Origin: Negaprion brevirostris
Taxonomy: Eukaryota
NCBI GenBank assembly: GCA_030324005.1
Contig: JARDVH010000001.1
Coordinates: forward strand, 113,626,077 to 113,690,076
Direction: 5' to 3'
Length of the DNA stretch: 64,000 bases
Shown: positions 48,493-62,813 of the stretch, one piece after another
Position numbering within the stretch: the stretch's first letter is position 1
How the letters are laid out: each line of letters opens with the position of its first letter
Made by a program: the position numbers and the translations under genes
Notes under the pieces: generated by a model
The model's input: the letters and a program-made list of their open reading frames with translations, nothing else
Told to the model about the DNA's origin: nothing
Database searches by the model: none

Positions 48493-48529
48493 ATGGATGC
48501 CAACTGCCGTAAGCATTGCGTCGAATTAT
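48493..48529 (+). CDS. pitx2: pitx2 exon 2 coding part (a/b N-terminus MDANCRKHCVEL; exon starts 48470)
   Basis: Resembles mammalian PITX2a/b METNCRKLVSACVQL; acceptor ctctctctag ending 48469; donor T|gtgagt at 48530, phase 1. Confidence 0.85.
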
Positions 48530-49681
48530 GTGAGTAAAAGCTTCGTTTAACATCCCCCCCCCCTCCCCTTTAAAACATCTTGCAATGTAGGGGCAGTTAA
48601 TACTTTTGTCGAAACTTGGCCTGTGTATAAATGATACGGAGGGAAGCTGATTGATTCCCCGGGCGCATTTTTCTCAATACACCGTCTACTACCGACACCC
48701 ACAGAGGGTATTTTCATTCTGAGCTGTGACCGGCTAAAATTATATTCTGAAGCAAGTTTCAGTGAAGCTCAGATCCTCAAAGCAACAAGAAATAAGAATG
48801 AGCATCCCTACAGCGCTTAAGGAGAGGAAACAGGTTAATGCAAATGTAGAATTAGAGATTTTAATATGTGACAAATGTATAATTTTGGAACAAACGCCAA
48901 TAAGATGCTCTGAAATATGTAACCACTATAGCTGTGAAATTTTACCGACAGCCAGGTACTGGGCAGTTTCTGTGGGTGAGGCCTGTGGGTGATGTCATGG
49001 CTGACATTAATTAAGCAGCAAAGGAGAGAGTTGGAGCTCAGAGTGCCATAAGGAACGTTTAATTAACTCCAGTATTGGGAAGCGAATACACAGACACGTC
49101 TGTGCTTTCTTTTGGTTTTGTAACCTTGAAAAATCGGTGCTTATGCGACAAACTGGGAAAGTGCAATTCCTTCAGCACTCCAGAAAAGAGGGACCGGAAA
49201 GCAGGCAGACACGTGAAGGAAAGAAATATGCTCCTTTTGAATCAAACGTATTGTCATCTTCTTAACATGAACCCCATCAGAATAATTCGACAAAAATACT
49301 TGCCTCAAAAGACGAAAAACCCACGCAGAAAACATGTCAAAAGTAATGGTTATAGTTTAAAAGCACACGTCTCTAAATCTGCCGGTATATTTTCTTATTC
49401 TCTCATTAGTGCCACCTATCCAAAAGGTTGGCTCGAATATGATTAATATAATAACCTTGCTGCTGGTATTAAACATGCGTTTATGTGAGGGCTGCTTGGC
49501 AGTCCTCTAGACAACTTGAGTTAGATTTTAAAATATAGAGCATGAATATCTGAGAAGGGGCGTGGGCGAGAACCAACGGAACAATCTAAACTAGGGAAAG
49601 TAGAAAACCAAAGGGGCTAACAGAAATTTTTGTTCCATTTTATTTACGTGTCTCATTTCGTTTCTATGTTTCCCCTCTCAG

Positions 49682-49816
49682 CCTCGCAGCCCTCTGCTGT
49701 GGAGTATTTATTTACGAAAGACACAGAAATTCGAAAATCTGAATTAAGTTCTGCAACGGAAGCTGGAAACAGTAGAAAAGATAATAAATTCCTGAGGCAT
49801 CACCTCGACTCACATG
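49682..49816 (+). CDS. pitx2: pitx2 exon 3 (b-isoform cassette exon, 135 nt)
   Basis: SQPSAVEYLFTKDTEIRKSEL...KFLRHHLDSH versus human VQPAAVECLFSKDSEIKKVEF...KFFPRQHPGAN; polypyrimidine acceptor ending cctctcag; donor G|gtaggc; phase 1-1. Confidence 0.9.
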
Positions 49817-52399
49817 GTAGGCAAAACAAAATAGTCTCGTATATTAAAATTTCCTAAACATAAAGTCTTGAAATATTTACGTGATCGGATGGACGGAATT
49901 ATGATGTGCGTAACATCATTCACTACACTAAACCTTACAACAGAATTCCACTACACCCTCTAACCAAACTGAAAGAAATCTCTCAAGATACACCGTTTAG
50001 CCTAAAATTTGTGTTAGAGCGGCCTCTGCTGTACTAAAAGATCAAGTGTAGCAATCCTGAAGGGGTTCTGCTTGCTATGTGAACCCGGCAATTCTAAATT
50101 CCTTACAAGCAAGATAAACAACCAACCAACCTCAATTTTAAATCAAAGTAATTTAAGAAAAAAATTCATTTTCCTGGACTCATCTGAATAATTTACATTT
50201 GACTAAATAGCAAGTCCATTCATAAAACAACAGGTAATAAAATATTGAAGATTGTTTCTCTATTTGGTTCTATCGTTTGTTTTTTAAAAATACATTCCTG
50301 CGTATATTACTTACTTTAAAAGGTGTAAATTATCTGCATACATGCAATTTCTGATATTTTCAGAAAGTGCTCATCCAAATGAGTACAAACCAATTGTGCT
50401 GTTTATCTTCACGAACCTCACATTTTGAGACGAAGAGCTCGGCTGAAGAAAATTAATTGACTTTGCAAAAGCCCTTTTTCTCACATAGAATCGCTTTCTC
50501 CATACGCCGTTAGTAATCCTCGATGTGCTGCAGTTTTCTTGTTGTGCACTGCTAGATGCGTTAATTGGACATTTTCCTACAAAAAATAGGTTTAAAGAGG
50601 TTTTCCTTTCCGTTTGAAATATAAAGATATGCAAGTAAGTTTGTTGTTCTGCTCTTATGCGTGTTTTAAATTGAACCTAGTATTAATCCTGCTATAAATC
50701 CTTTGCGTTATGTAATACATTTTTATTGGCAATTGCAGAAGTATAATCTACAGTCATCCATTAACTTGGCCTTAACTTACCAAATTGTATTCAATTTTCT
50801 GTTTACAACCGAACCATTCATTGGAGCTGCGTATCTATAGACGTGTTTCAAATACACTTGATTCACTAATTTCCAAAAACGTATAAAATTACCTAGACAG
50901 ACAATCTTAAAGTAAAACGAAACGAAAATATAACAATTTGCTCTCATATTGTGTGGCATCCATTTCAACTCCAAATTTCGGGTGCGCGAATTTTAATCTT
51001 GTTTGTGCTTCCAATTTGATGATATGCAAACGTTAATTTTGACGGTTTATTTATTCCATAGTCTATTCAATTGTGTGCATGTGTGCACAAATACGTTGTG
51101 TGTTGAAATGTTTTTAGTCAGTACAGTGTTCCACTCTGCTCCGTCGTTACTTTCGCATTTAAGCACTTTGTGTACAGTTTAAATCAATGCACAAACGGAT
51201 TTTTATGATCAAATTTAACCATTACCATTTAGCCAGTCCGACACAATTTAAATGATCAGATTACATTGAGGAGGCCAAGTGATGCTTGGAAACCCATATG
51301 TTATAAGCTATATCGTTTCTTTATCCGCAGGCCCCCTGAAAAATAATTCTAAATGTAAAATAAAATTTGACATGGTTTATCTCTTTAATACCAAACAGCT
51401 GCATGAATTGCGAACAGTTTGAAAATACTTCGTTTTTCCTGAATATGCAAACATGCTACAGTTTCTCTTGTCACTCTTTAAAATGGGTATTCGCTCACTC
51501 CAGTAATCCACTAATCTGGAGTAACAATTCGTGTACTATGGTGTATAAAATGTTTTTAAATCTTGTTCATTGTGAGAGTCTTTTAACGAGAATTTTAGAA
51601 GCATGTTTCAGGTGAAGAGTGAGGCGGTGCTTGTACTAAAGAAATGTGTTATTGCACTGCCTAATCCTCTATGTGTGTAAGTGGAGAGGGGTGCCATGGA
51701 GACGGGAAAGAACTAGAAATTTGTCAAATATCAATGAAAGAAAGTTTATTTCCTTTTAAGATCTGTTTACTGTCTGTCTGTTTTGTACAGTCTGTGTAAT
51801 ATATGCAGCAGTTGTTAGATTGACTCGAGGGAAAACTAAATGTATAATGAAAGCTTATTCGTGAGTAGGAATATACTAATGGAACAATTTGATATCTTCT
51901 TAATCCTTTGTAAAAAGCTTTGTCGTCTTCCTAATATTGACTGAATGGGTAATTAATGGCTCTTCATCTTGGAGAATACTCAGTAATCCAACATAGGAAA
52001 AAGACAACAAACCCAAGGTATAAGACAACAAAACAAGCACAAATCTATCCAAACAGCACCAATTCATCCACTTAACAGACTACAAGTTCTGGAAGTAATC
52101 TTCTAATGTATATGTGCAAATACAATCAGAGCCAGCGACCGTGTCACAATACTACAAACATCCTAATTCGATACCTAAAAGCCTTATAATAAACGTGCAA
52201 TTGATGGATCAGAAGTGCATTTTAATTTAACTTTTTTTCGATTCCACGGCGCATTTATTTGAAAATAGTTTTGTGATCTTTTCTATGTGTCAGCACAACA
52301 GCTATGCATATTTTGGATTTTTAAAATCATATTTTGCTCATGAAATATGCAGTATTCAAATAGCTCAATCTCCAACCGCAGTTTCCTCTCTAAGATCTT

Positions 52400-61330: not shown

Positions 61331-61660
61331 TGCAGTTACCTATCCCTGTCACTCGGACGCACACATACACAGTGTCAGCCCGGAATCATTCATTCATTGT
61401 CACCCCTCAGTCTGCTTCTTCTCCTCCTCTGACACACTTTCATCCCTGCACGGGCTTTCTAATGAAGAGAGCAGCACGAATGCGCAATTTAAAGAAGATT
61501 TGTGCAACTATCTATTGAAGATTTGTGCACGACAGTTCCTGGATCACCACACCCCTAGATCATTGCATTCCCCTTTGGACTTCTCTCTCAGTGTGAGGTG
61601 GGCTGCGAGAAATTTAATCCTCTTTGGAACATCGCACCGGCTGCTTGTATTTGTTTATAG

Positions 61661-61844
61661 ATGAACAGTGCAAAAGACCCGTTGACTTTGGACCACCCTA
61701 GAAACAGCAGCAGCGGCAATAAATTGGTGCGGGATCAGGCAGCATTAGCCATGGCTTCGGGTTTGCAACCGGTACGAACGAGCGAGCCCAAGCATCGGCT
61801 CGAGGTTCACACTTTATCGGACACCTCCAGTCCTGACACGGGAG
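61661..61844 (+). CDS. pitx2: pitx2c first coding exon (exon 4)
   Basis: MNSAKDPLTLDH...LAMASGLQP...KHRLEVHTLSDTSSPDTG matches PITX2c MNCMKGPLHLEH...LAMASVLAP...KHRLEVHTISDTSSPEAA; donor G|gtaagg, phase 1. Confidence 0.95.
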
Positions 61845-62607
61845 GTAAGGCCTTTTCCATCCATATAACACCGCATCGATTTCACTCCAATCGGACATAG
61901 TGCCACTTCCTTATTTTATGGCATAACTTTATTGCGTCTCAAGACAAAAATGCAATGCGTTTTGACATCAGCGATCATTTTATTACTCACTTTGTACGAT
62001 ATGATATATTCAGTGTTTCACATGTTATGTCTGCAAATTGCACCGTTCCTGAGTTATATCCATGAGCGCGTGCAATGAAATTCTATGCGAATTATTGTTT
62101 AGTATAATAATAGAACGGGGTATTAAATATTCATTTATTTATTACAGTCTAAAATGGGTCTATTCGTACTTTAATCGTTATGGGCAAGGAAATATGTACA
62201 TTTGCCAATGAAGTGAGTAGCTTGTTTGCATTTTGTAGACTAAGAAAACGCGCTGAGTATACATTCAGGGGTGGAAATATTTTATACATATCATTTCTGT
62301 TTCTGCATCAGAGTAGGTGCTTTATAACTCTGCAAATATACAAATTGAATATATGAAGCAATGCGCAAAAATAAGCTATTGTCATTTAAAAGTCAACCAG
62401 GGCATTTAATTTAGTCATTTAATCATGAGATGCTACGATTTAAACCCGCAATATCGCTGTGCTTGTGCACTTAAAGGTACTTTTAGGATGCACAATGTCT
62501 AGTTCGTTGTTTCTGGTTGGACTTACCTTTCTCAGGTGTGTGAGCTGAATATTTATGTAATGCCCAAGTGAACCAATTGGGAAATCACTGCTCATTTTTG
62601 TCCCCAG

Positions 62608-62813
62608 AAAAGGATAAAATTCAGCAAAGCAAAAACGATGATACGAATACAGACGACCCGTCAAAGAAAAAGAGACAAAGGCGCCAAAGAACCCATTTCA
62701 CCAGTCAACAGCTACAAGAACTGGAGGCAACTTTCCAGAGAAATCGCTACCCAGACATGTCGACGAGGGAAGAAATTGCAGTTTGGACCAATTTAACTGA
62801 AGCTAGAGTTCGG
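62608..62813 (+). CDS. pitx2: pitx2 homeobox exon (exon 5, 206 nt)
   Basis: [69 protein letters not shown]; acceptor tttttgtccccag, donor CGG|gtaggt at the conserved paired-class intron position. Confidence 0.98.

Follow-up and report, generated by a model that had tools for sequence, protein, structure and literature searches.

Pitx2a, one of the N-terminal variants of the homeodomain protein Pitx2, has been described in zebrafish, chick, frog, mouse and human. The system of a, b and c isoforms to which it belongs is outlined in three papers (PMC2330153, PMC3267762, PMC8650168). The b1 form is somewhat less potent than the a form in reporter assays (PMC2330153), and zebrafish and chick are described with Pitx2a and Pitx2c (PMC3267762). 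A literature search of titles and abstract openings, covering few subscription journals, found no paper on the Pitx2 isoforms of cartilaginous fishes.

The present analysis concerns the Pitx2 gene of the shark Negaprion brevirostris, of which exons 1 to 5 lie on the + strand of a 64,000-nucleotide (nt) stretch of contig JARDVH010000001.1 (assembly GCA_030324005.1, positions 113,626,077 to 113,690,076), referred to throughout as the window. Exon 6, which carries the part of the gene for the Lys50 homeodomain and the OAR domain, was not found within these 64 kb. The shark gene shares with bony-vertebrate Pitx2 the same exon order, a phase-1 symmetric exon 3 and a separate Pitx2c exon (exon 4); joining exons 2 and 5 would correspond to Pitx2a, exons 2, 3 and 5 to Pitx2b, and exons 4 and 5 to Pitx2c. 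It differs from its bony-vertebrate counterparts in that its exon 2, with T as the last base, encodes three residues fewer, and the a form is closed.

The exon 2-5 junction and its distribution

The features on which the argument depends are as follows (a slash marks a splice site or a codon split by one).

48470..48529, + strand: exon 2, with 84-90% identity to shark Pitx2b N-termini
48529, + strand: last base of exon 2 (T), codon position 1 of Ser when joined to exon 3 and of TAA when joined to exon 5
48506..48514, + strand: candidate internal donor GCC/GTAAGC, in frame and 21 nt upstream of the main donor
49682..49816, + strand: exon 3 (the Pitx2b exon), 135 nt, phase 1 at both ends
61661..61844, + strand: coding part of exon 4 (Pitx2c), last base G, c form open
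62608..62813, + strand: exon 5 (linker and first part of the homeobox), beginning with AA

With the usual splice sites, this shark gene does not encode canonical Pitx2a. The coding part of exon 2 (48493-48529, 37 nt) consists of an ATG at 48493, which opens a run of 12 codons, and a final T, with the donor GTGAGT at 48530. When exon 2 is joined in silico to exon 5, this T and the AA at 62608 form TAA at codon 13, after 12 residues, so that recomputation reproduced the claim of a first-pass annotation of this DNA that skipping of exon 3 builds a stop codon and leaves a 12-residue peptide. The same annotation had read the exon 2-3-5 join as a fully open Pitx2b with Ser (T/CC) and Glu at its junctions, and this was confirmed in silico, where the exon 4-5 join was likewise open. 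Its description of exon 3 as obligatory holds for the canonical a/b N-terminus.

A junction scan, in which all GT and GC donors in 48496-48619 were combined with all AG acceptors in 62540-62699, qualified one further claim, namely that the nearest alternative splice sites also fail. The donor 4 nt downstream of the main one and the acceptor 5 nt downstream of the normal one indeed give no open frame, but an open internal donor had been overlooked: used with the normal acceptor at 62608, the GT donor after 48508 keeps the frame and gives an open join. Open joins also result when the main donor is paired with the AG sites at 62545, 62569 and 62653, which by eye have no clear pyrimidine tract.

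Homology identifies the gene as Pitx2, not Pitx1 or Pitx3, because the four proteins matched by exon 3 are all shark proteins of this locus (86-93% identity; three of them named Pitx2) and because the exon 4-5 product, with its c-type N-terminus, shows no difference from Mustelus asterias Pitx2 X1 across the 95 residues compared. The latter match points to a ground shark. The linker encoded by exon 5 is common to Mustelus and Pristis.

For a single codon the relevant test is conservation and not chance. For a wider comparison, 391 proteins were gathered, of which 131 could be classed because they contain the exon 2 motif together with the linker downstream of it; these rows are not independent, as they include several isoforms per gene and related species. 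Among the 260 left unclassed, three start with the motif and fail the pattern (one shark fragment with Ser and two teleost a-type proteins with Glu), and the rest have no motif. In all 10 shark-type rows, a 12-residue exon 2 is followed by Ser, and none of the 10 is a-type. They come from Scyliorhinus canicula, Scyliorhinus torazame, Chiloscyllium punctatum and Cetorhinus maximus, four species of three orders. Annotated b-type models are plentiful in sharks: C. punctatum X1-X4 and X6 (X6 under at least four accessions), S. canicula X1 and Cetorhinus X1-X2; S. canicula X2 is c-type, and S. torazame BAK57345.1, presumably derived from complementary DNA to judge from its accession, is b-type.

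The bony-type rows present a different junction. The junction codon begins with G in 121 of 121, and exon 2 encodes 15-16 residues against 12 in the shark, in agreement with the first-pass description of an exon shorter by three codons. The 53 a-type rows belong without exception to the bony type, and their junction residue is Glu in 39 and Asp in 14. Glu also stands at the junction of exon 3 or exon 4 with exon 5 in each of the 14 shark and sawfish rows; exon 5 should therefore begin with AA or AG in these species, and a T at the end of exon 2 would give a stop codon in either case. These comparisons suggest that the T is common to sharks of three orders and is not private to N. brevirostris, and canonical Pitx2a is probably unencoded in other sharks as well.

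Searches of other collections yielded little. In metagenome contigs the exon 2 pattern had no match, and a protein scan returned 599 pattern matches with no confirmed shark among them. A search of representative proteins with the shark exon 2-3 fragment recovered the fragment itself and one weak, unrelated match, with no ray or chimaera. An exon 3 search gave no RNA dataset by record among the 15 matches listed, nine of which were guessed to be RNA.

Upstream exons and other features of the window

Two further exons lie upstream of exon 2.

45680..45770, + strand: 3' part of a likely exon 1 (5' untranslated region), located with tblastn by its similarity to the upstream exon in models of Chiloscyllium punctatum; the frame here contains a stop
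47896..47998, + strand: likely alternative upstream exon (predicted use), whose ATG shares the frame of exon 2

Exon 1 ends in the donor G/GTAAGT after 45770, and the interval 45530-45770 has no ATG. The segment at 47896-47998 shows 88% and 74% identity to the N-termini of the Cetorhinus X1 and C. punctatum X1 models, respectively, and its frame is open into exon 2 both here and in these two annotated models. The exon is one codon longer here than in the shark models, with the frame kept, and it may provide a 42-residue N-terminal extension of Pitx2b.

Within exon 3, the AG acceptor at 49721, 39 nt into the exon, is open in frame, and its pyrimidine tract reaches only 50%; this offset equals that of mammalian Pitx2b2 (PMC2330153). 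Exon 4 has a second ATG at 61751 in a strong context (GCCATGG), which matches the start of mouse Pitx2c-beta.

Upstream of exon 1, the segment 43276-43417 shows a translated match of about 89% to a model predicted ab initio for S. torazame; the frame is shifted here, and the segment is probably a conserved non-coding element. The segment 44900-44961 matches the first exon of Cetorhinus X2 weakly and has a frame shift and a stop here; it is possibly a further alternative first exon that is non-coding in N. brevirostris. In intron 3, the segments 52400-53600 and 54005-54230 resemble decayed retroelement fragments by eye. The window has 17 N gaps, two of which lie between exon 3 and exon 5 (53905-54004 and 61026-61062); the second of these falls inside a G+C-rich region upstream of exon 4 that is likely the Pitx2c promoter.

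Use of exon 3 and the alternatives

The explanation that we consider probable is that practically every mRNA from the upstream promoter contains exon 3, that only Pitx2b and Pitx2c are made, and that the T is shared by sharks. The pyrimidine content of the acceptors at -23 to -4 is 85% for exon 3, 80% for exon 5 and 70% for exon 2, and predicted pairing of the donors with U1 amounts to -7.7 kcal/mol for exon 3 and -7.1 kcal/mol for the main donor of exon 2. Pairing energy is a crude stand-in for a splice-site score. By these two crude measures the splice sites of exon 3 appear as strong as those of its neighbours; this strength and the good conservation of the exon among sharks (86-93% identity) are weak indicators of constitutive use. 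If exon 3 came to be always included, the codon at the exon 2-5 junction would no longer have been under selection, and a change from G to T in the last base of exon 2 could then have been fixed, altering the Pitx2b residue from Gly or Ala to Ser. The T would now lock exon 3 in, with skipping yielding only the 12-residue peptide, and any skipped mRNA would be non-productive noise that is probably not a strong substrate for nonsense-mediated mRNA decay (NMD).

Several points weigh against constitutive inclusion of exon 3. The evidence for it consists of sequence and annotated proteins. Skipping is the preferred event in mouse pituitary (PMC2330153), and a constitutive shark exon would be a large change. 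That a-type shark proteins are absent is in part a circular argument, as annotators emit no protein for a join that bears a stop; because the T closes the frame, such a protein would be missing in any case, so its absence does not demonstrate that the skipped mRNA is absent. Shark counts were taken from the matches listed, with isoforms scattered over several clusters, and rare forms may be hidden. The N gaps at 53905-54004 and 61026-61062 conceal sequence between exon 3 and exon 5. Two routes to an open a form also have to be considered, through the internal donor at 48508 and through the Ser codon of other sharks, which may be AGY and would then give Lys at the exon 2-5 join.

The first of these routes, splicing from 48508 to exon 5, would produce an open a-like protein with an N-terminus seven residues shorter. 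With the normal acceptor the site gives an open, in-frame join, and its GTAAG fits five intronic consensus positions. However, its U1 pairing of -4.6 kcal/mol compares with -7.1 at the main donor and is of a level reached by 11-20% of the 977 GT sites in 45000-63000 (20% reach -4, 11% reach -5 and 3% reach -7 kcal/mol), and no protein form of this kind is present among the 391 gathered. The site looks like a weak donor whose use is predicted only, and rescue of Pitx2a through it is considered quite unlikely. The second route would limit the stop to N. brevirostris or a small clade, with other sharks having an AGY Ser and an open Pitx2a. Protein data cannot separate TCN from AGY codons; nevertheless, A/GY is two base changes away from the T/CC of the window, which makes T the likelier shared state, and an open a form would have been annotated, yet none is found in the 10 shark-type rows. 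This restricted distribution is regarded as very unlikely. An assembly error, with base 48529 truly G, might be suspected in a draft with so many gaps, but a G would give Ala with exon 3, and because all 10 shark-type proteins have Ser, an error at this base is hardly credible.

Other explanations accept the stop codon and give it a function, and all of them presuppose that exon 3 is skipped. The first-pass annotation had called the exon 2-5 mRNA a likely NMD target and had proposed a splice-coupled off switch, in which tissue-dependent skipping would turn off Pitx2b output, whether by NMD or through an mRNA without a protein product. In silico, the stop (ending at 62609) stands 204 nt before the donor of exon 5 (62813), beyond the 50-nt limit; skipping is common in mouse (PMC2330153), and PITX2 is dosage-sensitive in humans (PMC3267762). 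In mammals, stops within the first 21 codons of LMNA or the first 23 of beta-globin do not trigger NMD, the escape boundary varies between genes from roughly 21 to 100 codons, and residual decay near the start is lower for TAA and TAG than for TGA (PMC12776119). From the main ATG, the stop at codon 13 falls inside every boundary quoted in that source, and neither the designation as an NMD target nor the decay-based switch was sustained, the skipped mRNA itself being hypothetical. A start in the alternative upstream exon at 47896-47998 would instead place the stop at codon 55, outside the escape zone of LMNA and beta-globin, whose boundary lies at 22-25 codons. Regulated unproductive splicing is judged unlikely. 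The 12-codon frame might alternatively act as an upstream open reading frame, with reinitiation at the ATG at 62757 giving an inhibitor with a truncated homeodomain that resembles PITX2D, which does not bind DNA and inhibits the other isoforms (PMC2330153). This ATG is the first in frame, lies in the homeobox 147 nt past the stop, has G at -3 and would start a predicted protein of 206 residues; annotated human and bird/turtle proteins of 206 residues have the same start and presumably correspond to PITX2D. Against this stands a competing out-of-frame ATG at 62638, only 28 nt past the stop and with A at -3, whose frame of 52 codons ends 17 nt before the exon 5 donor. Moreover, among the 391 proteins no shark protein has the 62757-type start, which occurs, in the matches listed, in human and bird/turtle rows only. 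The chance of such a product seems slender, and it seems equally slender for the broader proposal that in cartilaginous fishes exon 3 skipping would be an activator-to-dominant-negative switch, operating through NMD escape, the upstream reading frame and the PITX2D-like product, for example in the regenerating dental lamina.

Polarity and comparison with known systems

Shark and bony b-type N-termini align with 60-63% identity, and exon 3 thus predates the split between sharks and bony vertebrates. The b forms are present in bichir, frog, reptile and mammal, and the a form in teleosts, lungfish and tetrapods. Two histories would account for this pattern. The a form may have been lost in cartilaginous fishes, as the first-pass annotation proposed for this lineage, from an ancestor that made both a and b; or exon 3 may have been constitutive at first, with skipping a novelty of bony vertebrates. 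The latter would follow a described route by which a constitutive exon becomes skipped (Lev-Maor et al., 2007, PMC2077895). The lamprey protein has no exon 2 motif and so does not polarise the change, and the proteins gathered include no outgroup with exons 2 and 3. Ascidians are mentioned with a and c forms (PMC3267762), and homology of the ascidian exons would be an assumption only.

If sharks are unable to make Pitx2a, this form would be dispensable for teeth, eye muscles and pituitary in a jawed vertebrate, and the choice between a and b would differ at the deepest split of living jawed vertebrates. The effect would probably be modest, as the two forms differ only in degree in reporter assays (PMC2330153). 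The locus would provide a dated, testable case in which a key developmental regulator had one of its cassette exons locked in (or freed), and no 'Pitx2a' should be assumed in work on catshark or skate.

In unproductive splicing coupled to NMD, one splice choice makes a premature stop upstream of a later junction. The stop of the shark exon 2-5 join likewise lies upstream of a later junction; it differs in its position at codon 13, within the zone of escape in mammals, and in belonging to an isoform that is hypothetical. The truncated homeodomain predicted from shark reinitiation is like that of human PITX2D, although the human form arises from the c promoter and a cryptic exon 5 acceptor, not from exon 3 skipping (PMC2330153), and has no shark equivalent among the 391 proteins. 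With the constitutive/cassette switch (PMC2077895), the shark gene has in common that orthologous exons differ in use between lineages, being alternative in one and likely constitutive in the other; it differs in its lock, which is a stop formed across the skip junction although exon 3 preserves the frame. Set beside zebrafish and chick, which are described with a and c (PMC3267762), the shark gene encodes b and c, and is thus their mirror image.

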